Position numbers and translations under genes: made by a program
IMG/VR virus record: IMGVR_UViG_3300021399_000041
Location: 1-38,933 of that record
DNA length: 38,933 bases
Direction: 5' to 3' (one strand)
DNA from: a virus
Shown here: in pieces, positions 108-38,933 of the stretch
Layout of the letters: every line of letters begins with the position of its first letter
How positions within the stretch are numbered: the stretch's first letter is position 1
Notes under the pieces: generated by a model
What the model saw: the letters and a program-made list of their open reading frames with translations, nothing else
The model's database searches: none
What the model was told of the DNA's origin: nothing

Positions 108-184
108 TGGTTTACATAGTAGCCGCGCGTAGAATCATAACGCCCTACGGTTCTGATTCCTGCAAATCCTATTAAAATTCTCAT
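1..184 (-). CDS. 5' end of the DGR target/fibre gene after circularisation; adds 27 N-terminal codons (MRILIGFAGIRTVGRYDSTRGYYVNQA) upstream of the GTG at 38929 (equivalent to position 103)
   Basis: ATG at 184-182 is in frame (81 nt) with the ORF that starts at 38929 (equivalent to 103). There is no stop between them. An AT-rich spacer follows the stop of the 211..1596 gene. Confidence 0.6.
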   Translation of the reverse strand, partial: MRILIGFAGIRTVGRYDSTRGYYVNQAVQDEFGNWWVSKTGQKTAQADNPNTAPLPTIVNG

Positions 185-1943: not shown

Positions 1944-4900
1944 TTATCTAATACTTCCCTGCTTATAAAGCCAGTATATTTCTTCGTAGCCGTCTGTTAT
2001 CTTACATTTGCATTCCATGTAACAGAATGAATTTTGCCCAATACCAAACGAAACGCTGCTGCCGCTTTCTGTTTCTTTCAGCGCACCAGTAAACGACATA
2101 GTATAACTGCTTCTATTTACAACTAACAGCGTGTTACCTATCAGCATTCTACATTCGTCTTTTTGTTGCTCATTGTATTTTGTTGCTGTGTAGCTATCCA
2201 TATACGGCATTGCCACGTCTATTCTTTGCCCCACGTTGCTGGCTATCTCTACAAACTGGCCACACTTCAGCACGTCTAAGTAAACGCCAAAGTCGGTATT
2301 AATTGTGTAAGCGGTCACGTTACTGGCGTTAATAATCAGCTTCGCCTTATACATAAAGCCCTTAATGGTAATGTCGTCGAAAATACCGTTTTTCGCTGTC
2401 ACTACGTCTGCCCAAATCTGCTGCACGTTCAGCAAAGACATGTTAATATAGCCATTAGACGCTACCAAAGTCTTTTGGCCGCTGTTTGTCTGCACTACAA
2501 ACTTGTTAGTCGTTATAACTATCTTTTCGTTTGTTATGTCGATACCAGTAGCAAGCTGGCCGCAGCGTTCCATTATTTCCTGCACTGACGGGCAAACGCC
2601 GCCCATAACTACACCAACAGCCCACACGTCCCAGCGGCCTTGCACGCAGTTAATGCCGATAGTGTGCGTGTCTACACCGCTATTGTTAGCCATTAGGCCA
2701 GTGGCTATCTGACGGGTAGCGTAATACTTTCGCCAGCCGTTACCCAAATCAGTAAACGCCGCCGTAGCTGTGTCTACCGCGCTAACGTTTTCGTCACCAC
2801 CACCAAAGCAAAGACGCTTTCTGTTGTTGCCCTCTTGTACCTCGTAGCCGTTCACGCAGCGACATATAACAAACCATGTAGTAACCTTTCCCACCAGCGC
2901 GCTATAATTGTTTCCGGCTGTGAATGTTATTTGCCAGTTCTGCGCCGTGTCATGGTCTACTTGCACAAATTCGCCAAATATCGGGTCTGCGTGCTGGTCT
3001 ACTTCTTCAGTACAATAGTCGTCGTCTATGTTCGCGTCGATGGCGCGCGGATTCAGTATGTAGTTTTTCCAAAGCAGCTGGTCGTCGGCTCCCGGCATCC
3101 ACGCCGTAGCATCTTCGCCGCGCTCTATCTTATACCAGTTTACTACTACGCCGTAGCTTCGTGTACCGCCGGAATTTGTGCCACCCCGGTAGTGCATATA
3201 AGACATAATGTTATATTCTGCTGTTCTGTCAGCAGTAAACGTTACGCTTTTGGTCTGTGCGCTGGTAGACACTATTTCTATATACCCCTTTGTTATCCAG
3301 TCGCCTACGGCCTGCGCATTTCCTGCGTTTACGTCAGCCTGCACCGCCCACCGCCAAACATAACAGCGTAGTGACATGTTATTATTATATGCGCCAGCTG
3401 TCAGCATACCGTTTGCGCTGAAAGTGTACTGCTGTCCGGCTGTCAGCCTCAGCGTTCGCATAGCGAAGCCGTAAAGCGTCGATGTCTCATTAATCAGCGA
3501 AGACGCTAACAAGTTACGCCCGCCTTGATTATCCAGCACTTTGTTAATTTTTGCGCTGATGGTGTCGGCTGTCTGTGTCAGCTGTGTGCCAGTGGCGTAG
3601 TCGTTTTCTATAGTCGTCACACGGCTGCTTATACTTCCAGCCATTTGTGAAATGGTGCTGACACTTGTATTAAGACTGGCTATGTCTCTGTCGTTGTCGT
3701 CTACCGCGTTACCTAACTGGCTTATTTGTGAAGTGTGACTGCTGACGGTTGAAGTAAGGCCGTTGGCTGTTACTTCCAAAGCTGCCACCCGGTCTGTTAC
3801 ACTGGTCAAGCTGCCACCCAAACTATTAATAGAAGACGTGTGGCTGCTGACGGTAGCACTAATTCCGTTTACCGTCGTTTCCAGTGTAGTGGTTCTGTCG
3901 CCTAAGTCGCTTAATGTCTCTGTGTGTTCGCTGACGGTAGCACTAATTCCGCTAACGGTCTGCGTCAGCGTAGCTATAGCCGTGCTGTTGCCGCTGGCCG
4001 TGCTGCTTACTGAAGACAGACTGCTTTCTATTTGCCCGGCTCTGATTTGTAGCGCGCTTATAGAAGACGTGTGGCCGTCTACGGTGTCGCTTATATCCTC
4101 TACGCTGGCAGTAATGCTTTCTGCTGTCGTTTCCAGTGTTCCTATGCGCGTGCTGTTGCCGCTGGCTGTAGATTCCACGGCGGTAACTCTGGCCGTTATA
4201 CTGGTCGCTGTTGTTTCCAGTGTTCCTACGCGGGTAGTCAGCCCGGAAAGGTCGTCTTCGATGTCTGACACGCTGGCCGTAATATTTGTAGCCGTCGTTT
4301 CCAAAGTGCCTACACGGGTAGCTATGCCGTCGGCTTTCGTGTCTACTGCTGTCACACTGGCTTCTATGGCCGTCGCTCTGACTTGCAGCGCGCCTATGGC
4401 TGTGCTGTTGCTGCTGGCTGTAGATTCCACGGCGGTAACGCGCGAAGTAATGCTTTCAGCGGTTACTTCCAAAGTACCTACGCGCGTGGCTATGCCGTCA
4501 GCCTTAGTGTCTACCGCCGTCACACTGGCTTCTATGGCAGTGGCGCGTACTTGTAGCGCGCCTATGGCCGTGCTGTTGCTGCTGGCGGTAGTTTCAACAG
4601 CAGACACGCGCGCTGTGATACTTTCGGCTGTCACCTCCAAAGCACCTACGCGCGTCGTGTTGCTGTCTACTTTGTTTTCCACGCGCTGCACTTCCAGCAA
4701 AATGTGTTCTTTTGTCTGTTCTATCCTGCTTTCGTAGTACGTGTATTCGTTCAGCGTCAGCATTACGTCGTGAATCAGCATAACGCCGTTAGTGGCTATA
4801 GTGAAGTTACCCGTGCCACTCCAGTAGCCCGTAGCCTCAACGTGTATATATTCATTGTCAGCTGTCAAAGCCTCGCTGTACGACAAAGCAGTGAATGTGT

Positions 4901-6719
4901 CGTAGCCCGTCGTAGTCTCTCCGGCTATGCTAATAGTCAGGGTTCCGGCTTCCAGCACTTTCACATACATAGACACGTACACTGGCACGGCCTGCTTTTT
5001 GCTGTTCACCGTCTTTATTTCGGGTGTCTTCGCGTAATCAGCGGCCAGCTGCACCAGTTGGCTGTTAGCGATACGCGCCACACCCAGCCCGCCGTCTGTA
5101 GTCCAGCTTGTGCCATTTCCCAGCTTGTTAGCCAGCGGCGACTTATTAGCCCATACATACTTAGCACCCACTTTGAAGTAGCGCGTGCTGGCGTTACCCT
5201 GCCAACCGTTCAAGTCAGTGGCAAAGCTGCCATTTGTCAGATAGTTGTCTTTGTCGGTAGCTGTGCGCACCGTCTCGCTTATGATGCTGGTAATTTTTCC
5301 GTCTATCACTTGCAGCAGACTACGCCCGTCATTCAGATAGAAGTCGCCAGTAAATACGTTTCCGTGTGGGCTTATGCGCGTCTTCTGTCTGCCAGTCAGC
5401 CTATAGCTATTAATGCCTTGATACTGCGTAATGGCTGGCGCGTCTGTGCCTACGGCTGACAGCATAATAGCGTGCTGGCGTTCTGTGTCTGTACGGTTTC
5501 CCAGCTGCACTACATGGTCGCCTGCTGCTGGCGCGTCGCTGTTGGCCTCGCAGTCGCTCTTTGACACGTCTATATAGTCTTCGCCTACTTCAGTAACCAG
5601 TCGCCACCAGTAGCGATTTTGCACATTTTGGTACACTCCGGCCTTAATATTGAATGTCTGACAGCGTGCTTGGTCGCCAGCGCGCCAGTAGTTCATAGTG
5701 GCTGTAGTGCCGTCGTCGTTCTTAATGGTACACCGCCAAAAAGTGCCTTTGTCTTCCACGCCCGTAATAACGCTGCCAGCACCGCTTAACAGCAGATTAC
5801 CACCTACATAACTAAGACGGCGTATTTCCAATTCATCAAAGATGGCCTTAACTCTTACCAGCAGTTTGTCACACTCTATTACCCACATGCCGCCAGCATC
5901 TTGGTACGCACCTATTCCAGTACCTAACATGCCGCCAGCCGTCCAGTCGGGTGTCTTCAGCCACGCAAAGATAGCACCGCCCAGCAGCTTCAGCAGATAC
6001 CGGGTTTCGTCTTCAGTGTCTTTGCGTAGAAATGTGCCTATCATTTTGGCTACGGTCATAATGGCCGTGTCGTCAGCCTCAACAGCAGCACCGCTTTGGA
6101 TAGCGCGCACTATCTTAGCGTCACCCAGCCACATGCCACGCACCAGCGTAATAAAGTCCTCAAAGGTTATCTTTCCTTTGGCTACGTCGTCATGCAGCTT
6201 TGATAAGAATTTCTTTTCAGCGCGCTTTTCCGATTCCCCTATTTTGCCGTCGATTTTCTGCCAGTCTGTACTATCAGCCGTCAAGTTCTTAGCCAGTGTA
6301 GCTAAGTCTGCCGTCTTCGCGTGGTCTGTTTTGCCTGCTCTGTCAGCAGTCTGCGCGTGTATGGCCTCGTTAGCACTGGCCGCGTGGTCTGCTTCATCTG
6401 CACGCTGTGCGTTCACGGCTACGTCTGCGTGCTTCGCGCGTTCAGCTTCAGCAGCATTTGCGGCTATGTCGGCGTTCTGCGCGTGTGTGGCTTCGTCTGC
6501 TAAGTTGGCACGTTCTGCCAGCCTTGCTTTTCCGGCTTCTTCTGCATACTTCGCGGTTCCGGCTTCTTCTGCATACTGCACACTGCCAGCTGGCGTGTCG
6601 CTGTTGCTGCTGCTGCCTACGTTGTTTATAATGGTAGTGCTGCCGCCGCCAGTTCCTTTGAAGTTCTCGCTACGGCCTTTACCGGGAATAATATACGATA
6701 TTACTTTTACGTCTTTCAT
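1944..6719 (-). CDS. Large tail fibre / host-recognition protein (1591 aa)
   Basis: ATGA overlap with the upstream gene at 6716-6719. N-terminal Ala-rich HAxxAD-type repeats and central ~56-aa imperfect tandem repeats (TRVGxLExTAESITxRV...). Two jelly-roll/CBM-like stretches (NGSFATDLNGWQGN, GGRNLLASSLINET). Position is downstream of the tape measure. Confidence 0.8.
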   Translation of the reverse strand: MKDVKVISYIIPGKGRSENFKGTGGGSTTIINNVGSSSNSDTPAGSVQYAEEAGTAKYAEEAGKARLAERANLADEATHAQNADIAANAAEAERAKHADVAVNAQRADEADHAASANEAIHAQTADRAGKTDHAKTADLATLAKNLTADSTDWQKIDGKIGESEKRAEKKFLSKLHDDVAKGKITFEDFITLVRGMWLGDAKIVRAIQSGAAVEADDTAIMTVAKMIGTFLRKDTEDETRYLLKLLGGAIFAWLKTPDWTAGGMLGTGIGAYQDAGGMWVIECDKLLVRVKAIFDELEIRRLSYVGGNLLLSGAGSVITGVEDKGTFWRCTIKNDDGTTATMNYWRAGDQARCQTFNIKAGVYQNVQNRYWWRLVTEVGEDYIDVSKSDCEANSDAPAAGDHVVQLGNRTDTERQHAIMLSAVGTDAPAITQYQGINSYRLTGRQKTRISPHGNVFTGDFYLNDGRSLLQVIDGKITSIISETVRTATDKDNYLTNGSFATDLNGWQGNASTRYFKVGAKYVWANKSPLANKLGNGTSWTTDGGLGVARIANSQLVQLAADYAKTPEIKTVNSKKQAVPVYVSMYVKVLEAGTLTISIAGETTTGYDTFTALSYSEALTADNEYIHVEATGYWSGTGNFTIATNGVMLIHDVMLTLNEYTYYESRIEQTKEHILLEVQRVENKVDSNTTRVGALEVTAESITARVSAVETTASSNSTAIGALQVRATAIEASVTAVDTKADGIATRVGTLEVTAESITSRVTAVESTASSNSTAIGALQVRATAIEASVTAVDTKADGIATRVGTLETTATNITASVSDIEDDLSGLTTRVGTLETTATSITARVTAVESTASGNSTRIGTLETTAESITASVEDISDTVDGHTSSISALQIRAGQIESSLSSVSSTASGNSTAIATLTQTVSGISATVSEHTETLSDLGDRTTTLETTVNGISATVSSHTSSINSLGGSLTSVTDRVAALEVTANGLTSTVSSHTSQISQLGNAVDDNDRDIASLNTSVSTISQMAGSISSRVTTIENDYATGTQLTQTADTISAKINKVLDNQGGRNLLASSLINETSTLYGFAMRTLRLTAGQQYTFSANGMLTAGAYNNNMSLRCYVWRWAVQADVNAGNAQAVGDWITKGYIEIVSTSAQTKSVTFTADRTAEYNIMSYMHYRGGTNSGGTRSYGVVVNWYKIERGEDATAWMPGADDQLLWKNYILNPRAIDANIDDDYCTEEVDQHADPIFGEFVQVDHDTAQNWQITFTAGNNYSALVGKVTTWFVICRCVNGYEVQEGNNRKRLCFGGGDENVSAVDTATAAFTDLGNGWRKYYATRQIATGLMANNSGVDTHTIGINCVQGRWDVWAVGVVMGGVCPSVQEIMERCGQLATGIDITNEKIVITTNKFVVQTNSGQKTLVASNGYINMSLLNVQQIWADVVTAKNGIFDDITIKGFMYKAKLIINASNVTAYTINTDFGVYLDVLKCGQFVEIASNVGQRIDVAMPYMDSYTATKYNEQQKDECRMLIGNTLLVVNRSSYTMSFTGALKETESGSSVSFGIGQNSFCYMECKCKITDGYEEIYWLYKQGSIR
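4299..4667. repeat. Imperfect 168-bp (56-codon) tandem repeat, about 2.2 copies, inside the fibre gene; more degenerate copies extend from about 3760 to 4680
   Basis: ttccaaagtgcctacacgggtagctatgccgtc... at 4299 recurs at 4467 and partially at 4635. The protein repeat is ATRVGTLEVTAESITxRVxAVExTASSNSTAIGALQVRATAIEASVTAVDTKADGI. Confidence 0.8.
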
Positions 6720-9030: not shown

Positions 9031-9070
9031 TTTATATTACCGCCTGCCAGCGGCTCTTTGCCCCCTCGAT
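9031..9070 (-). promoter_or_regulatory. Late-gene bipartite repeat, copy A (ATCGAGGGGGCAAA-N16-GTAATATAAA)
   Basis: Plus strand has tttgccccctcgat at 9057-9070, abutting the tape measure stop codon, and tttatattac at 9031-9040. The ATG of the next gene is at 9022. Confidence 0.6.
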
Positions 9071-12000
9071 TACGGTTTCTTAGCTTGTTTCTTGTAGTTC
9101 TCCATAAGCAGATATAACGTACTGCCACGCAGCGCGCCTATAATGCGCTTACCGTCAAAGCTGCCACGTAGCATGTCGCTGTTTATGGCGTTCCACAAAC
9201 GTTTCTGCTGACTGCCGTTTAATATCATTTCGCCAGCATTGACCCGCGCCAGCTGCAAATCATTAATGCTGCTGCCGCCCTGCACCACGCCACCGCCTGC
9301 AAACTTAGGAATAGCAGCCATTAAGCCCAGCACGGCACTGATAGCAGCGGCCACGGCCAGCAGATTAGCCGGGAATGGTAATTTAGCGGCACTGGCTCCG
9401 GCTGAAGACGCTGCACTGGCAGTATTTGCGGCTACGTCTGTAGTAGCCTTTGCCACGGTTGCCGCACCTGCTGCTTGGTCGCTGGCTATAGCCTGCGTGT
9501 TGGCGGCTACCTTTTGCGCGGCTGTCGTCTGTGTCATTGCAGCTTCAGCGGCCTGCGCTTTCTGTAAAGTCTCGCTGGCTTCAGTCCATGCGTTCACCGC
9601 GTCAATAATACGCAAAAAGCCGTCTACCGTCTGCGTCATGGAGTTCCAAATGGCGGCTATCTTTTCCCACGGGCTTGCGTCTTCGTCGGAAAGTGTATCT
9701 GCTAAACCAGTCCACGCGCTTACGATTGTGTTTGTGCTGCTGGCTAAGTCTTTTACGCTATTCCATTCAGTCTTCGCTAAGTCCTTTTGCAGTGCCTTAA
9801 CGTCTTCGCGTACCTTTGCCAGCTTCAAAGCCTCATCCAAAGACGTGACTTTCTTCATTTGGTCTTCTATCTCTGCCGTCATGTCGCTGGCCAAAGACTT
9901 CATTTCTGCCAGCCGCTTCTTAGCTTGTTCAAGCTGGTATTCTATTTCAGTCTTCGCTATTTCGTCGGCTGTCAGCTTGTAGTCAAATGTTTTGTCACGT
10001 CCGGGCTGTTTGGCCAGTTCTGCGTTCATGGCTCCCACTTCCAAAGCCTTACGGTATTTCTGTATGACTTGTATAGTGTGCTTCTGTTCGTCTGTCAGCC
10101 CGTCGATGGCGGCGGCTTGGTCTATGAAGCGCGTCTGTGCTGCCAGTACCGCTTTGGCGTAGCTTTCTTCTGTCAGCACGCCGTTAGCTTTCTTTCTGTC
10201 AGCTTCGGCTATGGTTTCCTTATAGCGCGCTTCAGCGTCTGCCAGTTCGCGCGCGGCTTTGGCTGACTTGTCGGCTTTTACTGCTGCTTCCAGCTTCTTA
10301 GCAAATGCAGATTCGCGCGCGGCTACGTCGTCGCTACTGCGAAGCCTTAACAGCGTTTCTTCATTCAGCCGGGAAAGCTGCTGCTGGTATTCGTTTTCCG
10401 TAACCAGTTCCAGCCGCTTCTTTTCGTCAAGTTCACGCAGACTGCGCGTATAGTCTTCTTGCGCTTTCTGTAGGTCGGTTTTTTGTTTGTTGCCGCCACC
10501 GTCGCCGCCAGTACCACCGCCACCGCCACCAGTGCCCCCGGTTCCACTGGTAACTACTACGGCGTTCATTTCCTTTGTCTTATCCTCGATATAGTTGTTT
10601 AGCGTCGTCACGTTGGCTTGCAGCTTTGCCCACTTAGCCTTAAACGCTCTGTAGCCGCTTGGGGATGCTCCAGCCTCGCGTATAGCGTCGTTTTCAGACA
10701 TACCCATAACGCGCTCGTTAAAGTATGCAGCAGACACACCTTTGCTGGCGTTCTTTTCAAAGTCTGACAGCTGCATTTCCGCGTCTGCCAGCTTCGTACT
10801 GGCGGCTTGTATCTGTGCTGCCAGCTTCAGCTTTTTGCAGTAAGCGTCCAGCGCGTTAGTATTGTCGTTTATCAGTTTACCCTCTTGTGTTAGGCTGGCG
10901 TGATAGTCAGGCACTATTTTCTGTAAGTCCGCTATAGCCTGCTGGCGGTTCTTGATGGCCTGCGTATTGTCGTGTACTATCTTAGACAGCGCGGCTATTT
11001 TGGCGCGTTGCTCGTTTTCGCTATTTGTAGCTTCTTTCTCTATGTCCTTGATAACGTCACGCGCTCCGGCGGCTTCGCGTATCAGTGAAGAAATTTTGCT
11101 GATAACTTCCACTATTACGGTCATAAGCAGCATAGGCCAAACGGTACTCCATATAGTCTTCATGGCTGCTGCTGCTGTCGTAGCGGCTGCTTTTATCTTT
11201 ATCATGGCCAGCTGCCACCCGGTAGCACTCTTAACGGCTGCTGCCTGCGCGTCCGCTGCTTTAGCGGCTTCAGTGGCTTTCGTTACGGCCAGTTCGTTGG
11301 CTTTCAGCTGCCGCTTCTTTGCTTCCAGCTGTACTTCGATGGCTAAACGCTGGTCTGCACTGGCCTTTTCCAGCTGTGCTTCCAGTGACTTGATTTGTTT
11401 TCGCAGTGTCAGCCCGGCGCGCTCTAAGGTATTTACCTTTGCGTGTGCTGCCTGCGCTTGTGCTGCCATTGTCATAAACGCAGTACCGCCAGCAGCCTGC
11501 CACTGCCGGAAATACTGGATAACCTTAACGCCTGCGAATATGGCCAGTATCTTAGCGGCCAGTGTGCCTAAATTCTCTGTGAAATATCGTATGAATCCAG
11601 TAAGTGCTTCGATAGGTGCAACAAATAGATTTTCGCCGCCTTGAAAGATTTTGATTTGAAACGCTTCCCATGCAGACGACAAAGAAGCCAGCGCGTTTTC
11701 CATGCGCCCGCTGCCTTGCTCAAACATTCTTTCTGTCTCGCCGTAGCTGCTTGCCAGCGTGTCGTTAAGTTCTATAAACTTTTCGTAGTTGTTAATCAAA
11801 GCAGCTGCACCGCTGAAAGCACGCCGCCCGAATACGTCTGCTAAGTCTTGGTTATTCTTACCTATTCCGCTTTCGTATAGCTTCTTTAATGTGCCTGCCA
11901 GCCCGTCTACTTCTACGGTCTGCTGGTTGATTTCCAGCCCGTATTTCTTCAGTGCTGCTGCTCCTTTGTCGCTTTCAGTAGAAAGCCCCATAAAGACTTG

Positions 12001-12663
12001 TTTCAAAGCCGTGCCAGCGTCCGCGCCCTTGATGCCTACGTTTGCCAGTGTACCCAGCGCGGCGTTAGTTTCTTGGATGCCTACACCGCAGTTCTTAGCC
12101 AGTGGCGCGGCGTTCTTTACGGCCTCTGCCAGTTCCAGTACGTTAGTGGCACTATGCGCGGCTGTACTGGAAAGTATGTCATTCACTTTGCCTAACTCGT
12201 CTACGCTCATGCCAAAGCCGTTCATGGTATTAGTAGCCATGTCTGCCGCCTCTGCCAAACTGATGGCGTTAGCCTGCGCCAGCTGTAGCGTCTTAGACAA
12301 AGCGGCTGTAGCCTGCGTGGGTGTCAAGCCGTTACGTGTCAGATTCTCCAAAGCACTGGCGGCTTCGCTGGCCGTGTACTTCGTCGTACCGCCCAGCCGT
12401 TTGGCTTCCGCTTCCATTGCTTTGAAGTCTTCAGTGCTGGCGTTTGTAACGGCGCGCACTCTGGCCATGCCAGCTTCAAAGTCTTTTCCGGCGTTAATCA
12501 TGCTACGCCCGAATTCCGTTATACCCAAACCGATGCCCAGCCCGCCTAACGTGCTTGTGATGGTACTACGCAGTTTCTTGAAATACCCCTCTACTTCAGT
12601 CACTCCGTGCTTAATTCCCTGCGTTAGCAGATTCAGCGCGATAGAAAAGTTAAGTTTTGCCAT
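9070..12663 (-). CDS. Tail tape measure protein
   Basis: 1197 aa. The N-terminal region (NASTEDFKAMEAEAKRLGGTTKYTASEAASALENLTRNGL...) resembles the TP901-family tape-measure core. Long coiled coils and a Gly-rich run. Position is after the chaperone. Confidence 0.9.
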   Translation of the reverse strand: MAKLNFSIALNLLTQGIKHGVTEVEGYFKKLRSTITSTLGGLGIGLGITEFGRSMINAGKDFEAGMARVRAVTNASTEDFKAMEAEAKRLGGTTKYTASEAASALENLTRNGLTPTQATAALSKTLQLAQANAISLAEAADMATNTMNGFGMSVDELGKVNDILSSTAAHSATNVLELAEAVKNAAPLAKNCGVGIQETNAALGTLANVGIKGADAGTALKQVFMGLSTESDKGAAALKKYGLEINQQTVEVDGLAGTLKKLYESGIGKNNQDLADVFGRRAFSGAAALINNYEKFIELNDTLASSYGETERMFEQGSGRMENALASLSSAWEAFQIKIFQGGENLFVAPIEALTGFIRYFTENLGTLAAKILAIFAGVKVIQYFRQWQAAGGTAFMTMAAQAQAAHAKVNTLERAGLTLRKQIKSLEAQLEKASADQRLAIEVQLEAKKRQLKANELAVTKATEAAKAADAQAAAVKSATGWQLAMIKIKAAATTAAAAMKTIWSTVWPMLLMTVIVEVISKISSLIREAAGARDVIKDIEKEATNSENEQRAKIAALSKIVHDNTQAIKNRQQAIADLQKIVPDYHASLTQEGKLINDNTNALDAYCKKLKLAAQIQAASTKLADAEMQLSDFEKNASKGVSAAYFNERVMGMSENDAIREAGASPSGYRAFKAKWAKLQANVTTLNNYIEDKTKEMNAVVVTSGTGGTGGGGGGTGGDGGGNKQKTDLQKAQEDYTRSLRELDEKKRLELVTENEYQQQLSRLNEETLLRLRSSDDVAARESAFAKKLEAAVKADKSAKAARELADAEARYKETIAEADRKKANGVLTEESYAKAVLAAQTRFIDQAAAIDGLTDEQKHTIQVIQKYRKALEVGAMNAELAKQPGRDKTFDYKLTADEIAKTEIEYQLEQAKKRLAEMKSLASDMTAEIEDQMKKVTSLDEALKLAKVREDVKALQKDLAKTEWNSVKDLASSTNTIVSAWTGLADTLSDEDASPWEKIAAIWNSMTQTVDGFLRIIDAVNAWTEASETLQKAQAAEAAMTQTTAAQKVAANTQAIASDQAAGAATVAKATTDVAANTASAASSAGASAAKLPFPANLLAVAAAISAVLGLMAAIPKFAGGGVVQGGSSINDLQLARVNAGEMILNGSQQKRLWNAINSDMLRGSFDGKRIIGALRGSTLYLLMENYKKQAKKP

Positions 12664-30028: not shown

Positions 30029-30301
30029 TATTACCGCTATGGAGTTATAAAGACATTAAGTAACTGATTACTACCCGATTAGTGCGCTTTGTCTCTGACC
30101 CCAAACGGGTCACAAAGCAAACTTGAGGAAAATCGGGTCAAACAGCCCGGTTTTCTTTGTATTTAGGCGTTACAGACTTATTCTGCCAGCCTACACTCTC
30201 GCCACGGCGCGCCGGAATTCATGCACCAATATGCACCAATATGCACGCCAGTATTACCGTAGTATTACCAAATATCCTTGTTATTACCGCAAAAGTATTA
30301 C
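30029..30301. repeat. attP-like region: five (G/T)TATTAC(C) arm-type repeats, a 3-copy ATGCACCAAT-type tandem repeat and a nested inverted repeat
   Basis: gtattacc at 30029, 30251 and 30262; ttattacc at 30281; gtattac at 30295. atgcaccaat-atgcaccaat-atgcacgcca at 30221-30250. gctttgt-ctct-gaccc-caaac-gggtc-acaaagc at 30086-30118. Confidence 0.5.
30128..30163 (+). terminator. Candidate intrinsic terminator of the repressor operon
   Basis: gaaaatcggg-tcaaacag-cccggttttc (10-bp stem with one G-T pair) followed by tttgtattt. Confidence 0.5.
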
Positions 30302-30307
30302 TTTTAT

Positions 30308-31516
30308 ATGAATATCCCACTAATAGCGTATGTCTTTGACAGAAAAAAGCAGTCTGCCGCTGACATACCCGGAAAGATAGAAATACGCATAACCAGCGGC
30401 AAAGTTCAGAAATATGTCGCTACTGGTATCAGTGTGCTGCCGTCGCAGTGGCAGCGTAACTTAGTCGTCAATCTGCCAAACGCTGCCAGCCTCAACAACC
30501 GTATAAGCATAATGCGCCGTCAGATAGACAAATACATTAACGACTGCTTAGAAAGCGGCCAGCCTATAGACATGTCGGCTTTTAAGTCGCTGGTTCGCGT
30601 AGATGATTCCGGCGACAACTTTTTAGACTTCGTAGCTGACCGCGCCGCCAGTCGCCATGTCGCTGATGGTACACGCGCCCGCTACGACGTATTTGTTAAT
30701 AACCTTATACGCTATGGCCGTCTTCGTCGCTTCACTGACTTAACGGCTGCTGGCATACTGGAATATAACGAATGGCTGCACCGTCAGACTATAGGCGACA
30801 ACCGTAGCCGTAAGATACGCAGCACGGCGCGCGATAAGTTGCCGCTTTCCGATTCTGCCATTTACAATTACCATAAATGCCTCAAAGCGTTCTGTAACGA
30901 TGCCTATATACGCGGTCTTATCCCGGAAAATCCCTATAACCGTATTCCGGCTGACGTTATAAAGCGCGGCGATAGACAGACGGCTGACTACCTTACTGAA
31001 GCGGAAATGATGACAATAGTAAACACGCCCATGCCTACGCCCACCATGCAGATAGCAGCGGACTTGTTTATTTTCCAAATGTTCACTGGTATGGCCTACG
31101 CTGACTTAGTGGCGTTTGACTTTAACGATTACAAGCTGGTAGATGGTAAATGGATATACCACGGCCAGCGCGTGAAGTCCGGCGTGGTTTACTTCAGCCA
31201 GCTTTTGCCGCCAGCCTATGAAGTAGCCAAAAAGTACGACTTCGTGCTGCCAGTCATGGAAAATTCGCAGTATAACGCTATGCTGAAGCTGGTAGCGGCT
31301 GAATGTAGGCTAAAACGCCGCCTATATTCCCATTTGGCGCGCCACACCTTTGCCACTTACATGCTTTCCCACGGCTCCCGTCTTCAGAATGTCAGCCGTA
31401 TGTTAGGACACACAAACACGCGGCAAACGCAAAGATACGCTGCCACGTTAGACGCTGACGTACAGAAAGACTTCGATACGGTAGCAAAGGAATTAGAAAA
31501 GAAGCCGGGCAAATAG
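30308..31516 (+). CDS. int: Tyrosine recombinase / phage integrase
   Basis: Start taken at the ATG at 30308 (MNIPLIAYVF). The C-terminal catalytic region has ARHTFATYML and LGHTNTRQTQRYA (R..HxxR..Y). Confidence 0.9.
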   Translation: MNIPLIAYVFDRKKQSAADIPGKIEIRITSGKVQKYVATGISVLPSQWQRNLVVNLPNAASLNNRISIMRRQIDKYINDCLESGQPIDMSAFKSLVRVDDSGDNFLDFVADRAASRHVADGTRARYDVFVNNLIRYGRLRRFTDLTAAGILEYNEWLHRQTIGDNRSRKIRSTARDKLPLSDSAIYNYHKCLKAFCNDAYIRGLIPENPYNRIPADVIKRGDRQTADYLTEAEMMTIVNTPMPTPTMQIAADLFIFQMFTGMAYADLVAFDFNDYKLVDGKWIYHGQRVKSGVVYFSQLLPPAYEVAKKYDFVLPVMENSQYNAMLKLVAAECRLKRRLYSHLARHTFATYMLSHGSRLQNVSRMLGHTNTRQTQRYAATLDADVQKDFDTVAKELEKKPGK

Positions 31517-34934: not shown

Positions 34935-35537
34935 TTAGATGGTAAATGTTAGCTTTTCGGGATAGCCTGCCGTGAAGTCATACGCCAGTATTTCTTCCAC
35001 GGTCAAAGTCATGTCGTCAATAGCGGCCAAATGTGCGCTGGTTTGGTTGTAGCACTTCACCGCGTACACTTCCAGTTCTTGCAACATGGCCAGCAGCTTT
35101 GCACATTCTATTTCCGGCGACAAATCAAACTCCCTAATATCCAAATGGTAGTTACCTTTACGGGCTGACTTCCACGCGCTGACGCTTTCGCGTATCTGTG
35201 CGCGCTTCGCCACGGGTAGCCAGTAGGGAATAGTAGTGCCTATGGCCTCAACTTCAAAGCTGAATTCATTAATGGCTGCGCTGTTGTCGTAGTCGTTAAT
35301 GGCCTGCTTCATAAACTGGCGTGCTATGGCCGTCGCTTCTGTCTCGTCTGTTTCCAGTTCGATGTAGTTGGCCACATGTACGGTACGCTGGCGTGGTTCC
35401 TCGCCCTCGCCTGCTTCGTCGGTTACTTCACGCTCTGAATGATTAAAATAGACGCGCTTCACGGTCTTACCGTCGCGCGTGGCTACCGTCTGCACTTCCG
35501 GCTGGCGGCTGTTGGCTTCGTCTTGTTTGTAAATCAT
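34935..35537 (-). CDS. Hypothetical protein (200 aa) downstream of the DGR
   Basis: ORF; no motif recognised. Confidence 0.6.
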   Translation of the reverse strand: MIYKQDEANSRQPEVQTVATRDGKTVKRVYFNHSEREVTDEAGEGEEPRQRTVHVANYIELETDETEATAIARQFMKQAINDYDNSAAINEFSFEVEAIGTTIPYWLPVAKRAQIRESVSAWKSARKGNYHLDIREFDLSPEIECAKLLAMLQELEVYAVKCYNQTSAHLAAIDDMTLTVEEILAYDFTAGYPEKLTFTI

Positions 35538-35742
35538 ATTCTATAACTTTAAGTGGTTCTTTCTCTTTGTCGTTCAGCGCGGCAAAGTAATAGTACCCGT
35601 CACGCTTTCTTATTATCTTCGTGTAATGTGGCAGTTCTGCTTCAGTGCCGCGTATTGTCTTCAGCAACTTGTAGCCCTCTGCTAACAGCAGACGCGCTTC
35701 TATTGCGCCGTCTTCCACATAGTACACTTGCGCTGCCAGCAT
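35467..35742 (-). CDS. Possible small ORF (91 aa) directly after the RT; coding status uncertain
   Basis: The ATG at 35742 (MLAAQVYYVEDG...) lies 35 nt after the RT stop. The ORF overlaps the next gene by 71 nt. The longer version to 35886 would overlap the RT. Confidence 0.3.
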   Translation of the reverse strand: MLAAQVYYVEDGAIEARLLLAEGYKLLKTIRGTEAELPHYTKIIRKRDGYYYFAALNDKEKEPLKVIEYDLQTRRSQQPPAGSADGSHARR

Positions 35743-35776
35743 CTCTTTTCCTGCGTGCAACTGACTGGCCGTTATC

Positions 35777-37132
35777 TCAAAATGGCAAATCAGCAGCGGC
35801 TTGTAAAGCAGCTGGCCGCAGTAGGCGCGCTTTCCTAAATACTGGTGCTTTAGTATCTTTTGCCCCCTCGATGTCGATAAGTCCATATAGCGGATATTGT
35901 GCTTTATGCTCCGGGCTTCTGAAGTCCGGCGCGGTTGTTAGTATCTTTTTCAGTTTGTTGTGCCATGCCTTTTGTCTGTGCCTGCGCTTCACCTCTGCAC
36001 GGCCAGCAGCCAGCATGTCGAAAAATTCCGGGTATTTCCGTTTCCAGTAGTTTATAAGGTTCGCCACGTCCAAATCTCGCAGACTGCCGCTAACGCCAGC
36101 CCAGCTTTGCATAGCCTTTTCCGGGTTCCAGCCCTCACGTATGCGCGTCTTCATCATTGCTTCCACTCTCCGGCGGCTCACACGTCGAAGCCACGCGCGC
36201 CTGCTGTTCACCATTGCGCCCAAACACTCAAAGCGTTCTTTTTCCACATTCAGCACGCGCCAGTTAGCTTTCAGCGTTTGCTTCATATCATCCTCAACAC
36301 TGGCACGTAGCACGCGCATAGCCGTATGCAGATAGTTTACGTCTTTGTGTATCATATATTTGTCGTCACAAAAGCGGTAGTAGCGGCGTATCTTATAGGC
36401 TAACAAAAGCTGCCAGTCTGTCGCTGCGTGGTAAACATGACCTAACACGTTGCTACTTGGCAGTCCTAAAGCCATGCCTACGCTACCCATGCGGCTAAGA
36501 TTCACTTCAGACAGCCAAAGCAGCCATTTGTCTTTGATATGGTCTGCCAGTATCTTCAGCAGCACTTCGTGGTTTGTTGTAGGGTAGAATTTGGCCGTGT
36601 CGCCAGTACCTACGAATAAGTCCGGCCTATGCCTCACTTTGCGGATAATCTCACGCCGCATGTCATGCTGGCCTTTGCCCTTGATGCTGCCGTAGCTGTT
36701 GGCTGGTATGATATGCTTCTTTTCCATGAAGACGTACTGAAGACAGTCGAAATACAAAATGTCTACTATCAATTCTTCCGGCCTGCTGGCATAGATTACA
36801 CGGTGCTTATTGTTTTCTTTCTTGTCGAAGACAATAAACGCGCGCGGCTTCCATACCATATAGCGAAGCTGGTAGTAAAGCCGCGTAACGTTTTCGTCTA
36901 AGTGTCCTAACCAGTCATGCCATGCGGCGCGTATCTCGTTAGTCCATTCCTTTTGTTTTTCGGGTCTGTTCAGATATTCCACTATTAGCAGAATTCTTTC
37001 GCGCGTCAGCATCCGCTTTCGCACATTGCCCACTTTCTTTGTCATTTTAATGCGTTTGCTAATTGGCGACACCATTTCTTCGTTCGGACTTATTCCCGTG
37101 CCGTCCTGCCAGTCATGCCAGCCTACTGCCAC
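35777..37132 (-). CDS. DGR-type reverse transcriptase with atypical motifs
   Basis: RT motifs in order: NKHRVIYASRPEELIVD (1/2), NSYGSIKGKGQHD (2a), GTGDTAKFYPTTNH (A/3), GLPSSNVLGHVYH (4), YYRFCDDKYMI (C/5), FECLGAMV (6) and QSWAGVSGS (DGR thumb motif ASWxGH-like). Immediately 3' of the TR. Start is uncertain (GTG 37132, ATG 37075 or ATG 37045). Confidence 0.85.
   Translation of the reverse strand: MAVGWHDWQDGTGISPNEEMVSPISKRIKMTKKVGNVRKRMLTRERILLIVEYLNRPEKQKEWTNEIRAAWHDWLGHLDENVTRLYYQLRYMVWKPRAFIVFDKKENNKHRVIYASRPEELIVDILYFDCLQYVFMEKKHIIPANSYGSIKGKGQHDMRREIIRKVRHRPDLFVGTGDTAKFYPTTNHEVLLKILADHIKDKWLLWLSEVNLSRMGSVGMALGLPSSNVLGHVYHAATDWQLLLAYKIRRYYRFCDDKYMIHKDVNYLHTAMRVLRASVEDDMKQTLKANWRVLNVEKERFECLGAMVNSRRAWLRRVSRRRVEAMMKTRIREGWNPEKAMQSWAGVSGSLRDLDVANLINYWKRKYPEFFDMLAAGRAEVKRRHRQKAWHNKLKKILTTAPDFRSPEHKAQYPLYGLIDIEGAKDTKAPVFRKARLLRPAALQAAADLPF
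35834..35872 (-). promoter_or_regulatory. Late-gene bipartite repeat, copy F, inside the 3' end of the RT gene (CATCGAGGGGGCAAAA-N16-GTATTTAGG)
   Basis: Plus strand has tttgccccctcgat at 35859-35872, encoding IDIEGAK of the RT. The distal half is a weaker match (cctaaatac at 35834-35842). Confidence 0.45.
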
Positions 37133-37251
37133 ACGTTTGCCTACTTGCTGTCTTTAAGTGTCTAATTTGATTGTGCAACCTTTGGCACCGTTCTGAATTC
37201 CATGCTTTCTTTTGATACATATTTCCGGCTGTGTGACAAAACAGCTGGCCA

Positions 37252-37356
37252 TTAGTTCACCGCCCGCGTTGGTTCCAGTTCGCATTCCCAGCCGAATTGT
37301 TCGCATTCCGAGCAAACACGCCACAATTCGCGCCGTTGTTCGAGTTCCCACCAGCG
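37252..37356 (-). repeat. DGR template repeat (TR)
   Basis: Non-coding copy of VR, offset exactly 260 bp. In the VR frame it reads AGGNSNNGANCGVFARNANNSAGNANWNQRGR and is rich in AAC/AAT codons. All differences from VR are at TR adenines (T on the plus strand). Confidence 0.9.
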
Positions 37357-37477
37357 GGCTGGAATTCAGCCCGTCGCGCATATTAAGCCATGCGCCGCTA
37401 ATTCTCTTTGACAGACGCGCGGCGCGCCCGGCCATTCAAAACCGGGTCGCCGTTCATCTGTTCAACTTGGCTTCGCC

Positions 37478-37490
37478 GTCGCTTTGCGAC
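37478..37490 (-). other. Small hairpin 12 nt downstream of the target stop codon (candidate DGR homing-associated hairpin)
   Basis: Minus-sense GTCGC-AAA-GCGAC, flanked by the 13-bp direct repeats at 37453-37465 and 37501-37513. Confidence 0.35.
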
Positions 37491-37501
37491 ATTCAGCTGC
37501 T

Positions 37502-38929
37502 TCATCTGTTCAAAGCACACCGCCCGCGGAGGTCCCAGTTCGCATACCCAGCCGAAGCGGACGCAGACCGAGCAAACACGCCACAAAACGCGCCGTTGAG
37601 CGAGGTCCCACCAGCGTAGAAGACCGTACCGCCACCAGTAATTAAATACTGGCCGTCAGTAACGCCCGTGCTGCTGCTGCCGTCTTCGTCTTCAGCCATG
37701 CCAAAGAAGTTAATATTCTTTGGATATTTCCAGTTATTAGCATCTACGACATGGAAATTAACGGTAATCTCTGCGTTATCGTCGGTAACGGTTACGGCGG
37801 CGTTAGCCTTTACGTCGTCCATTGTGAATTTAGCCACGCCGTTGGCTGTAAACTTCCAGCCAGCACCCCAAAGCCACTGCTTGCCGTCGATGGCATTTTC
37901 GCAATACATAAAGCGATGGCCACCGCCAACAGCACCACATGCAGCTACCAGCGTGTCAGTGGTTCCGGCTACCCAGTTACGTGCTGCTGATTCACCGCCG
38001 CCGTTCATCTGACCGCCGCGTGCTGTAGCCACGTCGAATGTACCGTAGTAGGCGACTTCCAGCCAGCCGAATACGATAATCTCCCACGCCGTCCAGTTCA
38101 GCAGATTGGCATTTGTTGCCACGGTCATGCTGTGAATGCTGTTTGCGCTGAAGTTGCCAGTAGGCTGGCTGTTTCCGGCGGCGCAATCCAGTGTAGTGCC
38201 GTCTTCGTTGAAAGTCAGGTCGTAGCGTCCCATGCACTTTGTACCGTTCTTAAACCAGCGATAGAAGCCGTTAGGACATACGCTGTCTAAGTTGAAGTAC
38301 ACCGTCATGGTACGGTCTAACAAGTTGATAAACGGTGCTACGTTGATGTTCTGAAGTTCCACCAGCTGCAAATAGTCGTTTTTGTCGTCAGTGGCGTAGT
38401 GGCTACCCGTGCCGTCTGCGCGCTCCGTCCAGTTCACGTTACTGGCTACGCCAGCCTCGTTACGCAGATAGGCAAAGTTCGTGAAGTCTTTCTTGATTTC
38501 ACACGGTTTGCCGCTGGTCTCTACCCACGTCTTAAACTTGTTGTAAAGCGTGGTGTTTCCTACTACGGTAATGGTCTTTACCGCGTCGTCGATGTTCCAG
38601 CGTATGCCAAAGCTGGCCAGCTGAAGCGTCTGTAGTTCGTTAGTCACCTTTGCGGCGATTTCTCCGATTTGCCCGGTAATGACTTGTGCGTTAGCCTCTG
38701 CGTGTGCTGCTGCTGCTTTAGCTGCTGCTGTAGCTGCTTGGCATTCTGCAATAGCCTGCGAAGCCGGAATGGTTACACCAGTCTGCATGTCGATACCCAG
38801 CTGCCAGTCTTCTGATGGTGTCTGTTCGCCGTTTACGATAGTTGGCAGCGGCGCGGTATTTGGGTTATCGGCCTGCGCCGTCTTCTGCCCCGTCTTTGAT
38901 ACCCACCAGTTACCAAATTCGTCCTGCAC
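37502..38929 (-). CDS. DGR target protein: fibre/receptor-binding protein with a C-terminal C-type-lectin-like variable tip (continues to the ATG at 184 across the circular junction)
   Basis: 475 aa in the window, about 502 aa once circularised. N-terminal fibre-like segment (GNWWVSKTG..., Ala-rich coiled coil AATAAAKAAAAHAEANAQ). C-terminal GGxxxNGAxCG...W..R..C pattern typical of DGR CLec-fold variable proteins. Confidence 0.9.
   Translation of the reverse strand: MQDEFGNWWVSKTGQKTAQADNPNTAPLPTIVNGEQTPSEDWQLGIDMQTGVTIPASQAIAECQAATAAAKAAAAHAEANAQVITGQIGEIAAKVTNELQTLQLASFGIRWNIDDAVKTITVVGNTTLYNKFKTWVETSGKPCEIKKDFTNFAYLRNEAGVASNVNWTERADGTGSHYATDDKNDYLQLVELQNINVAPFINLLDRTMTVYFNLDSVCPNGFYRWFKNGTKCMGRYDLTFNEDGTTLDCAAGNSQPTGNFSANSIHSMTVATNANLLNWTAWEIIVFGWLEVAYYGTFDVATARGGQMNGGGESAARNWVAGTTDTLVAACGAVGGGHRFMYCENAIDGKQWLWGAGWKFTANGVAKFTMDDVKANAAVTVTDDNAEITVNFHVVDANNWKYPKNINFFGMAEDEDGSSSTGVTDGQYLITGGGTVFYAGGTSLNGAFCGVFARSASASAGYANWDLRGRCALNR
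37512..37616 (-). repeat. DGR variable repeat (VR), last 35 codons of the target gene
   Basis: Encodes AGGTSLNGAFCGVFARSASASAGYANWDLRGRCAL. There are 15 mismatches to TR in the 99-bp core (37518-37616 vs 37258-37356) plus 4 in the 6-bp 3' extension, all opposite TR adenines. Confidence 0.9.
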
Positions 38930-38933
38930 GGCT
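38827..38933. repeat. Terminal direct repeat identical to 1-107
   Basis: Exact 107-bp identity with the start of the window. Confidence 0.95.

Follow-up and report, generated by a model that had tools for sequence, protein, structure and literature searches.

Comparisons between related contigs indicate that the viral DNA stretch analyzed here (38,933 nt in full, hereafter the window) almost certainly carries an active diversity-generating retroelement (DGR), located in the circular genome of a temperate siphovirus-like phage. Systems of this kind are already known; in this one the reverse transcriptase (RT) belongs to an unusual clade and no standard Avd helper gene accompanies it. The genome is a circular assembly of 38,826 bp with a 107-nt terminal repeat, and its source is a gut-type phage of roughly 39 kb, with an integrase encoded at 30278-31516. 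On the minus strand the cassette runs from the target gene, which contains the variable repeat (VR), through a 161-nt intergenic region with hairpins, the 99-nt template repeat (TR) and a 209-nt spacer to the RT gene and a small basic ORF. The target gene stands at the end of the tail module, with the tape measure and tail protein genes before it and the lysis genes after it. Neither sigma-70-like promoter sites nor minus-strand terminator-like sites were found inside the cassette, and given this the layout appears operon-like.

The TR (37258..37356, minus strand) and the VR (37518..37616, minus strand) form a gap-free alignment of 99 nt when one is shifted by a constant 260, with 15 mismatches, the same counts that a first-pass annotation of this DNA had obtained by hand. 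Our re-alignment also reproduced each of the mismatch positions that it had listed, namely 37269, 37270, 37274, 37286, 37297, 37298, 37300, 37301, 37306, 37307, 37327, 37328, 37339, 37340 and 37345, as well as the sharp ends of homology on both sides of the repeat. All 15 mismatches are T on the plus strand and therefore A in the coding sense, as checked on the minus-strand genes; they fall on TR adenines, which make up 22 of the 99 positions, and the seven T positions described as unchanged are what remains of those 22. No substitution at any other template base, named beforehand as evidence against a DGR, is present in the window. In the VR frame the TR adenines lie in ten AAY codons and one CAA codon, and 13 of the mismatches are in AAY codons and two in the CAA codon, in line with the predominance of AAY codons noted before; the resulting changes (N>T, N>L, N>F, N>S, N>S, N>A, N>Y, N>D and Q>L, with two Asn codons unchanged) were verified. 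The VR lies at the 3' end of the target ORF (502 aa), within the last 35 codons of the gene, and covers residues about 466-498 with diversified positions 37529-37606, whereas the TR is non-coding, located in an intergenic region and leading, when read in the VR frame, to a TGA stop just beyond the repeat. A scan of the contig for extra VRs, which had been suggested, found no further TR-like copy elsewhere in the window. Three ORFs that overlap the TR or the VR in other frames, at 37154-37435(-), 37398-37586(-) and 37212-37619(+), were judged spurious.

Two 99-nt direct repeats lying 260 nt apart are, on that alone, compatible with an ordinary dispersed duplication of a coding segment whose copies came to differ through random mutation or biased gene conversion, with no reverse transcription involved. 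We consider this explanation vanishingly improbable, because the restriction of 15 of 15 mismatches to template adenines has a hypergeometric P of 7.9e-13 in the window and recurs in 12 more pairs, the TR copy sits outside any coding context with its in-frame stop directly past the repeat, the RT gene always adjoins, and every TR adenine belongs to an AAY or CAA codon, a designed-looking usage typical of DGR templates. When the 13 TR/VR pairs (the window plus 12 from related contigs) were counted together, 188 of 295 A sites differed, against 2 of 992 non-A sites. TR adenines are thus changed to any other base at about 64% of sites, with a near-uniform spectrum (A>G 70, A>C 61, A>T 57). The statistics of A-specificity together with the conserved linkage to the RT refute the duplication reading. 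The first-pass proposal that the two repeats are the TR and VR of a DGR is upheld by the A-specific mismatches in 13 pairs, the adjacent bRT-related RT, the predicted fold of the target protein, the VR alleles and a conserved GC-rich block at the 3' boundary.

The RT gene (35777..37048, minus strand) begins 209 nt downstream of the TR and encodes 423 aa. Its start, MTKKVG, corresponds to codon 29 of an annotated 451-aa ORF (35777-37132), the first 28 codons of which were rejected after comparison with relatives. The protein matched PHROG family 1423 (RT, E 1.6e-38) and, among PDB sequences, 8bgj (deposited as RNA-directed DNA polymerase, E 4.8e-6), 8ub7 (a 328-aa 'Reverse transcriptase' chain that we take to be the bRT of Bordetella phage, E 8.8e-6) and the group II intron RT 6ar1 (E 2e-3). 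The Pfam RVT_1 model (PF00078) gave no match in the RT even at E<=10; since PF00078 is detected in more distant members of the clade, this miss reflects a limit of sensitivity. Invariant in the clade are LG..SSN, GH.YH and RFCD, seen in the window as ALGLPSSN and YYRFCDD. The signature (I/L/V)GxxxSQ in motif 4, described for DGR-type RTs (Schillinger et al. 2012, PMC3521204), is not matched: the RT reads LGLPSSN, and the change of Q to N is invariant in 40 clade members. Functional-looking DGRs listed in the same work carry SP, SH, NQ, PA, AQ or VQ instead, but SN is absent from that list (PMC3521204). LGLPSSN is a clade-specific variant and does not disqualify the RT from DGR membership. Surveys based on motifs or on Pfam would miss this clade, since its RT goes undetected by Pfam and does not have the textbook SQ.

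Comparison of VR alleles across related contigs, which the first-pass annotation had called for, showed that they differ at TR-adenine sites. The TR of locus L005 is identical to that of the window, while those of six other IMG/VR loci are 89-98% identical, and the non-A variants found in TRs are mirrored in the cognate VR (e.g. GGGGTGTTCTATCGG in L001 and TCTGCTTCGAAC in L008); because such changes reappear in the TR's own VR, information flows from TR to VR. Moreover, L005 shares 98.6-99.6% identity with the window over 8.5 kb, and its VR differs from that of the window at 15 positions, all of them TR-adenine sites; no other difference between the two was found within 36288-37528. Among 50 close homologues of the target protein, hypervariability is confined to the 11 predicted codons (ten AAY, one CAA), where entropy reaches about 3 bits for the AAY codons and 1.9 bits for the CAA codon, with lower values in the rest of the VR. 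At the CAA codon these homologues display exactly the five residues that CNN can encode. The 11 varied codons allow about 1.8e13 DNA and about 3e12 protein sequences. The window offers a clean natural example of an active phage DGR whose population record is intact, in which 13 related cassettes document transfer from template to target and adenine-only randomisation of 11 codons.

The 3' limit of diversification is marked by a GC-rich block, CGCGGGCGGTG, at the 3' end of the VR (37518..37528, minus strand), with an identical copy in the TR (37258-37268). Its initial description as an IMH-like element was borne out: the block is unchanged in 8 close loci, coincides with the 3' boundary of diversification in relatives, and no VR variation occurs 3' of codon 494. 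In divergent relatives the GC-rich block is closely similar, for example CGTGGGCGCTG or CGGGGGCGGTG. The pattern is of the IMH/IMH* type, CGCGGGCGGTG being common to both repeats and followed by TGCTTT in the VR (37512..37517, minus strand) and by AACTAA in the TR (37252-37257). The VR hexamer completes Cys-Ala-Leu codons, and the TR copy leads to the TGA. An extension of the repeat by these 6 nt had been proposed on the grounds that it adds four mismatches, again at TR adenines. The four differences stand, with 2 of 6 positions matching, but TGCTTT is the same in all 8 close relatives, and in the 50 close homologues the Cys and Ala are invariant and the Leu position shows two residue types. 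These differences are therefore fixed and not currently diversified, and the hexamer was rejected as part of the varied tract. Other lineages have TGCTGT or CGCTGT facing AACTAA. Judging from these alignments, the extension may represent an IMH versus IMH*-like difference or an old selected event.

The fixation of the four extension differences among close relatives, together with an RT that Pfam misses and whose SQ motif is altered, could be read as the mark of a relic, a DGR that recorded past mutagenic homing and is now inactive with its VR fixed. This appears very improbable to us. The RT ORF is intact and its catalytic motif is conserved in 40 homologues; genomes 96-99% identical to the window have different VRs, at TR-adenine sites only; clusters of the target protein at 90% identity hold up to 166 distinct sequences, with variation concentrated at the 11 codons; and drift at non-A sites amounts to just 2 of 992. 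A VR fixed across samples, which the first-pass annotation had named as evidence against its own reading, is contradicted by the variation between relatives, and an active DGR remains the preferred interpretation.

The main part of the target gene, including the stop, lies at 37502..38933 (minus strand), and the window ends inside the gene; the first 26 codons (108..184, minus strand, ATG at 184-182) are joined to it via the terminal repeat of the circular assembly. The complete protein of 502 aa is colinear with a 502-aa orthologue in L006. In sequence searches it gave no CLec or FGE match (Pfam, NCBIfam, PDB sequences), the PDB search returned noise alone, and tblastn against GenBank phages found no match; the 56 sequence homologues recovered are all unannotated metagenomic proteins. 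An AF2 model (pLDDT 84.9) was compared by Foldseek, and the best PDB match was the Thermus aquaticus protein TaqVP (5vf4; E 4.5e-6, probability 1.0, TM-score 0.34-0.49), with which sequence identity is 12%. In BFVD the model found tail fibre and tail collar fibre proteins with E values down to 1.8e-20, its neighbours including crAss-like tail fibre proteins (e.g. from cr55_1, a phage that also encodes a distant relative of the window RT) and CotH-annotated phage proteins. The predicted structure suggests that the target is a tail-fibre-like protein whose fold resembles known DGR variable proteins. Prophage-borne DGR variable proteins similar to TaqVP have been described as likely tail-fibre receptor binders, those of Bacteroides prophages forming 'domain group 2' (Macadangdang et al. 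2024, 10.1101/2024.11.15.621889). By analogy, and considering the gene position and fold neighbours, the purpose of diversification is likely to vary the receptor-binding specificity of the phage, and the variation suggests that receptor range evolves in phages infecting Bacteroidales of the gut or rumen. The host itself probably belongs to the Bacteroidales, according to metagenome bin names; a scan of GTDB genomes gave one match, a 5.3-kb Prevotella MAG contig, and the cassette had no megablast match among GenBank phages. Pfam searches with the RT, the target, the small ORFs and the ORFs overlapping TR or VR returned nothing, the amidase being the sole scorer.

Next to the RT gene lies the small basic ORF (35467..35886, minus strand), which encodes 139 aa with a pI of 9.3 and shares 110 nt with the 3' end of the RT gene, read in a different frame. 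Across the clade its product measures 117-139 aa with a pI of 9.0-9.3. The AF2 model (pLDDT 84.8) predicts five beta strands and a C-terminal helix; Foldseek with this model gave nothing significant, the best matches being OB-fold RPA/SSB domains (E about 0.1-0.4). No significant match was obtained for the protein in Pfam or PHROG, for its profile among PDB sequences, or by tblastn against GenBank phages. A profile search of 1.84 billion representatives returned at least 17 stand-alone clusters of this ORF among the 150 matches listed, most of which were RTs because two RT-fused rows had brought RT columns into the profile. The next ORF downstream (34935..35537, minus strand) encodes an acidic protein of 200 aa (pI 4.73) and may be a gene of either the DGR or the tail module. 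Several relatives retain it behind their small ORF; its orthologues of 182-186 aa show a weak DUF4376 match.

Avd is a four-helix bundle, whereas the small ORF product is predicted to be mostly beta; what the two share is short length, basic charge and tight linkage to the RT. No ORF in 34472-38933 matches Avd families (Pfam, NCBIfam, PHROG), and the 161-nt gap between VR and TR is too short for an avd gene. As the small ORF has no Pfam match, no Avd, HRDC or MutS-type family is detected in it. Published DGR accessory proteins comprise Avd, HRDC, MSL and CH1 (Wu et al. 2018, PMC5758913); CH1, with 160-169 aa and an acidic pI of 4.7 (PMC5758913), is set apart by description from the small ORF product of 117-139 aa and pI about 9.

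We tentatively suggest, with rather less than even confidence, that the small basic beta-rich protein is a previously undescribed DGR accessory factor that substitutes for Avd, for example as an OB-like barrel binding the DGR RNA or cDNA. If true, this would imply an Avd-independent and mechanistically distinct assembly of the mutagenic RT-RNA complex, alongside an RT of the SN/RFCDD type. That the ORF is a mere neighbouring phage gene or an extended C-terminus of the RT, the DGR being a plain, accessory-less target-TR-RT system, is a reading we hold to be evenly poised between right and wrong. It agrees with the fact that an accessory gene is missing from about a quarter to 29% of DGRs, lineage 3 among those without avd (PMC5758913, PMC7290462), and with the lack of a recognisable nucleic-acid-binding domain and of significant Foldseek matches for the small ORF. 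Speaking against it, all relatives examined, with RTs 37-99% identical to that of the window, have a homologue of the small ORF directly behind the RT, usually overlapping it, whereas the genes beyond vary; two separate clusters, P0111 and P0122, of 30 member sequences each, have the ORF joined in frame to the RT; and the pI of 9.0-9.3 of its product is basic like that of Avd (mean 9.5). The small basic protein coupled to the RT of this Avd-less cassette offers a concrete candidate for the "Avd-independent" mutagenic homing that has long been noted.

Avd is found in about 74% of DGRs and is thus not universal, and the lineage 3 DGRs of Bacteroides and crAss-like phages consist of target, TR and RT without avd (Wu et al. 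2018, PMC5758913; crAssphage LMMB, PMC7290462). The window cassette resembles these phage DGRs in architecture: it shares with them the order target-VR(IMH)-TR(IMH*)-RT without avd, a target of roughly 490-500 aa of tail-collar or tail-fibre type, and Bacteroidales as associated hosts, and the crAss-like and CotH-annotated fold neighbours of its target fit the same group. The RT is, however, only 22-30% identical to any deposited phage RT, including those of cr50_1, cr55_1, Versailles and Hankyphage; this distant kinship and the fold neighbours are hints of a place in lineage 3. After the RT, those phages have an acidic ORF (pI 4.7-4.8), in contrast to the basic beta-rich ORF of the window clade, and the two show no detectable homology: HMM scores of the small ORF against the acidic post-RT ORFs of cr55_1, Versailles and Hankyphage were near zero. 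The acidic 200-aa ORF also scored near zero against the post-RT ORFs of the same phages, a weak test since the HMM had two possibly unrelated rows.

Compared with the prototype DGR of phage BPP-1 (mtd-avd-TR-brt), the cassette shares its position at the end of the tail module of a phage, a VR at the C-terminus of a putative receptor-binding protein, adenine-specific substitutions mostly in AAY codons, a GC-rich element at the 3' boundary of mutagenesis, a hairpin downstream of the VR (in BPP-1 a hairpin/cruciform after the IMH) and a structured spacer separating TR and RT. It differs in lacking the avd that BPP-1 carries between target and TR, in an RT about 95 aa longer and missed by Pfam, in the RT motifs (LGLPSSN/RFCDD against IGSLTSQ/YMDD) and in an IMH/IMH* difference confined to four adenine positions; the target matches Mtd only weakly (1yu1, Foldseek rank 30, E 0.88, not significant). 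Given that no Avd is present, the BPP-1 mechanism is not transferable in detail. By analogy with BPP-1, an RNA reaching from the upstream segment across the TR into the spacer would be bound by the RT, and cDNA synthesis would be primed within the spacer, with misincorporation opposite template adenines; the cDNA would then replace the VR and so rewrite the tip of the tail-fibre-like protein. The 3' crossover would be set by the common CGCGGGCGGTG block together with the VR-specific flank and the downstream hairpin, and the 5' crossover at 37616, where homology ends. The small basic beta-rich protein, coupled in translation to the RT or, in certain relatives, fused with it, may hypothetically fill the role of Avd in these steps.

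The hairpin downstream of the VR, GTCGC-AAA-GCGAC (37478..37490, minus strand), is placed 27 nt from the GC block. A GC-rich inverted repeat follows the VR in about a third of DGRs, and in most of the 9 lineages compared here a GC-rich hairpin of different sequence occupies a comparable place, for instance CGCCG-TAG-GCGGCG or ACCTGC-GTAA-GCAGGT. Two more hairpins precede the TR. One of them, GCGCAT-GGCTTAAT-ATGCGC (37376..37395, minus strand), shows compensatory changes to GCGCGT...ACGCGC in L004/L006, and a hairpin folds at the equivalent place in L008, L014 and L015; this conservation suggests that it is probably a piece of the 5' segment of the DGR RNA. The other, GGGCTG-AATTC-CAGCCC (37356..37372, minus strand), abuts the 5' boundary of the TR and was found in close relatives only, with a compensatory change of T-A to C-G in L004/L006.

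The spacer between TR and RT start (37049..37257, minus strand), the putative 3' segment of the DGR RNA, is conserved and structured over its 209 nt, and indels among relatives that break the frame indicate that it is non-coding. A search of 36800-37800 against Rfam at permissive thresholds found nothing. The spacer contains the invariant blocks AGCAAGTAGG and ATAA.TCCGAA.GA and helices at 37241-37245/37228-37232, 37157-37162/37068-37073 and 37139-37141/37087-37089. This conserved RNA flanking the TR, with support from covariation, provides a second system for comparison with the BPP-1 RNA. The structure that RNAalifold predicted from a spacer alignment of 9 lineages has 14 pairs, and compensatory changes occur in 10 of these; 90.9% of the alignment cells were paired, against 77.5% in shuffles (0 of 500 reached the observed value) and 31-45% when the structure was slid along the alignment.

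The direct repeat proposed by the first-pass annotation was confirmed: over 36400-38933, at an offset of 260, the template repeat (TR, 37258-37356) and the variable repeat (VR, 37518-37616) align without gaps for 99 nt each, with 15 mismatches at exactly the positions it had listed and an abrupt end of homology at either side. All genes around the pair lie on the minus strand, and in the coding sense every mismatch (15/15) falls at a TR adenine as had been noted, the TR having 22 adenines in 99 bases; the probability of all 15 landing on these by chance is 7.9e-13. Read in frame with the overlapping ORF, the 22 TR adenines make up exactly ten AAY codons and one CAA codon, and the TR to VR changes previously read (Asn to Thr, Leu, Phe, Ser, Ser, Ala, Tyr and Asp; Gln to Leu; two Asn codons unaltered) were reproduced. 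The scan for more TR-like copies that it had called for found none in the window, also when mismatches were tolerated at every A position plus 15 more.

Eight IMG/VR contigs encode reverse transcriptases (RTs) 85-99% identical to that of the window, and both repeats are present in seven of them. Counted over 105 nt (the 99-nt core plus a 6-nt extension), these seven pairs show 13-21 mismatches each, all at TR adenines but one G>T. Five divergent relatives (RTs 41-61% identical) have the same layout as the window, and the adenine share of their mismatches is 20/21, 13/13, 10/10, 19/20 and 15/15. When the 99-nt cores of 13 pairs were pooled, 188 of 295 adenine sites (64%) differed, compared with 2 of 992 other sites, and the substitution spectrum was nearly even (A>G 70, A>C 61, A>T 57). 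The two non-adenine differences, a G>T in contig L006 (around 3513, VR position 16) and a C>A in the VR of L015, we regard as ordinary point mutations or rare non-canonical events. The non-adenine TR changes of a lineage recur in that lineage's own VR, which shows that information is transferred from TR to VR.

A TR identical to that of the window is found in contig L005, and the two are 98.6-99.6% identical over 8.5 kb; across 36288-38217 they show only 16 differences, of which 15 are within the VR, 15/15 of these at TR-adenine positions. In 50 proteins with at least 81% identity to the target, the VR-bearing protein, the ten AAY codons have an entropy of ~3 bits and the CAA codon, where exactly the five residues encodable by CNN occur, one of 1.9 bits; at the remaining VR residues it is near zero, except for two that track non-adenine TR differences between lineages. 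Up to 166 distinct sequences fall into a single target-protein cluster at 90% identity. Given the mismatch pattern of the relatives, the comparison with L005 and the variation of homologues at TR-adenine codons, we found neither a pattern of substitutions at other TR bases nor VRs fixed and identical across samples, and the interpretation of the pair as a diversity-generating retroelement (DGR) was upheld. These sequence comparisons thus point to an active, phage-borne DGR diversifying 11 codons of a tail-fibre-like protein, which would allow ~1.8e13 DNA or ~3e12 protein variants.

The first-pass annotation had also extended the pair by 6 nt; the four additional differences indeed fall at TR adenines (TR AACTAA, VR TGCTTT), but the extension lies outside the tract that is varying now. 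TGCTTT is the same on the VR side in 8/8 close relatives, and the Cys-Ala-Leu that it encodes is essentially invariant in 50 close homologues, while 9-13 residue types occur at the codons that truly vary; in other lineages, AACTAA is paired with TGCTGT or CGCTGT in the VR. The four differences may be rare read-through events that selection went on to fix, as a TGA stop would arise if the A were kept; alternatively, they may represent the distinction between the VR-side and TR-side elements (IMH and IMH*) that mark the 3' limit of mutagenesis. On either reading, the effective 3' boundary of variation is the GC block CGCGGGCGGTG common to TR and VR.

The 451-aa ORF downstream of the TR matches PHROG 1423 "reverse transcriptase" (1.6e-38) and was not recognised by Pfam. 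Its best PDB sequence matches are 8bgj, an RNA-directed DNA polymerase (4.8e-6), and 8ub7, a 328-aa reverse transcriptase chain that we take to be bRT (8.8e-6); a group II intron RT is also matched. The ORF as annotated was rejected: its first 28 codons (37049-37132) are non-coding, as they suffer frame-breaking indels in relatives, and 40/40 RT homologues begin M(T/K/R)K(K/R)(I/V)G. The true start is therefore placed at MTKKVG (37048), giving an RT of 423 aa and a non-coding spacer of 209 nt after the TR. Its motifs are ALGLPSSN..GH.YH and YYRFCDD, of which LG..SSN, GH.YH and RFCD are invariant in 40 clade members. Thus this clade has SN whereas the usual DGR RT signature, (I/L/V)GxxxSQ, has SQ, and SN is not among the variants of Schillinger et al. 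(SP, SH, NQ, PA, AQ, VQ; PMC3521204). The nearest RTs in deposited phage genomes, among them those of crAss-like cr50_1, cr10_1 and cr55_1 and of Bacteroides phages Versailles and Hankyphage, are just 22-30% identical. Such a clade would escape detection based on Pfam or on the SQ motif.

The 37049-37132 stretch instead forms part of a conserved spacer RNA. The spacer has blocks that are invariant across RT identities from 41% to 100%, and RNAalifold predicted three helices of 14 pairs, 10/14 with compensatory changes. In this fold 90.9% of cells are paired; shuffles give 77.5%, with 0/500 as high as observed, and sliding the helix partners gives 31-45%. This support, from nine sequences, is suggestive of a structured RNA. 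Two hairpins upstream of the TR also show compensatory changes among close relatives. Moreover, downstream of the VR, 27 nt from its GC block, lies a GC-rich hairpin (37478-37490, minus strand), and one at a comparable place, with differing stem sequences, is found in most of nine lineages; in the Bordetella phage BPP-1, homing is promoted by a similarly placed hairpin, downstream of the IMH (PMC5758913). A 13-nt direct repeat, TTGAACAGATGAA in the coding sense (37501-37513 and 37453-37465), flanks the window hairpin, its copy at 37501-37513 overlapping the last codons and stop of the target; a degenerate TGAA.AGATGAA pair is seen again in some relatives. Rfam gave no match in the cassette region. 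Scans of the cassette detected neither sigma-70-like promoter sites nor minus-strand terminator-like sites, which fits co-transcription, Bacteroidota-type promoters being outside the scan.

A small basic ORF (35467-35886, minus strand; 139 aa, pI 9.3) overlaps the 3' end and stop of the RT. In each of the relatives examined (RT identity to the window 37-99%), the gene right after the RT is a homologue of this ORF (HMM E-values 1e-16 to 1e-52), the genes farther downstream being variable. Two protein clusters of 30 member sequences each, P0111 and P0122, have it as an in-frame fusion at the C-terminus of the RT, and a further 17 clusters or more exist at 50% identity. This linkage and the fusions make it a reasonable candidate for an accessory factor of the DGR. 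It has no match in Pfam, PHROG, NCBIfam or PDB sequences. Five beta strands and one helix, at the C-terminus, make up its predicted structure (pLDDT 84.8), whereas the accessory protein Avd is a four-helix bundle; thus it is not Avd-like. Foldseek gave nothing significant with this model, the best matches being OB-fold ssDNA-binding domains (E ~0.1-0.4), a resemblance we treat as a lead. In contrast, the ORF directly after the RT is acidic (pI 4.7-4.8) in cr55_1, Versailles and Hankyphage, in agreement with the published description of the accessory protein CH1; one record labels such an ORF "Avd". These acidic ORFs, located in the known phage DGRs at 4926-5261 (L021), 4992-5420 (L022) and 4984-5469 (L023), have no detectable relation to the small basic ORF, and no homology to them was found for the acidic 200-aa ORF (34935-35537, minus strand; pI 4.73) that comes next in the window.

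No Avd-like ORF was detected in the cassette region with Pfam, NCBIfam or PHROG. About a quarter of DGRs are without Avd (PMC5758913), and so is the 'lineage 3' of Bacteroides and crAss-like phages, whose target-TR-RT architecture (PMC5758913, PMC7290462) is also that of the window. The window DGR therefore most resembles Avd-less phage DGRs of Bacteroidales, lineage 3 being the closest described group by architecture; unusual here are the RT clade, the conserved structured spacer RNA and the RT-coupled small basic protein of unassigned fold class.

The target ORF leaves the window end and picks up at 184, with a full length of 502 aa, and is colinear with its L006 orthologue. It has no sequence match in Pfam, NCBIfam or PDB, and its 56 homologues are all unannotated metagenomic proteins. 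Of PDB structures, the DGR variable protein TaqVP of Thermus aquaticus best matches the fold of its AlphaFold model (pLDDT 84.9; 41 sequences in the alignment) with E 4.5e-6 and TM 0.34-0.49, Mtd being first reached at rank 30. A comparison with predicted viral structures ranked tail fibre and tail collar fibre proteins highest (E to 1.8e-20, TM ~0.6), some from crAss-like phages. According to Macadangdang et al. (bioRxiv 10.1101/2024.11.15.621889), Bacteroides prophages carry TaqVP-like variable proteins that probably bind receptors as tail fibres; by analogy, and as its gene closes the tail module, the target is best inferred to be a receptor-binding protein.

The first and last 107 nt of the window are an exact direct repeat (1-107 = 38827-38933), so that the assembly closes into a circle of 38,826 bp, opened here within the DGR target gene. 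Judged by its PHROG matches, this is the complete genome of a temperate tailed phage, with an integrase; small and large terminase, portal, protease and major head protein; tail terminator, major tail protein, tape measure (9070-12663) and two large tail proteins, followed by the DGR; and an amidase and a spanin-like lipoprotein. The integrase gene, of the tyrosine-integrase-like type (30278-31516, plus strand), is oriented against nearly all the others, and a temperate lifestyle is probable. Residues 753-850 of a 1591-aa tail protein (1944-6719, minus strand) match a glycerophosphoryl diester phosphodiesterase PHROG (E 1.5e-13) and may be a host-envelope-degrading domain. Immediately upstream of the target, a 461-aa Ala/Thr/Gln-rich low-complexity protein (211-1596, minus strand), also present in L006 and without a PHROG match, may be a fibre shaft or linker. 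The host is hinted at by metagenome bin names alone (Prevotella, Paludibacteraceae, Bacteroidaceae). More distant members of the RT/small-ORF/target cassette were seen in much larger contigs of 64-302 kb (L009, L018 and L020), and its range therefore extends beyond 39-kb siphovirus-like genomes; these three contigs have a common upstream gene set including RNase H, with DUF488-type genes in two of the three.
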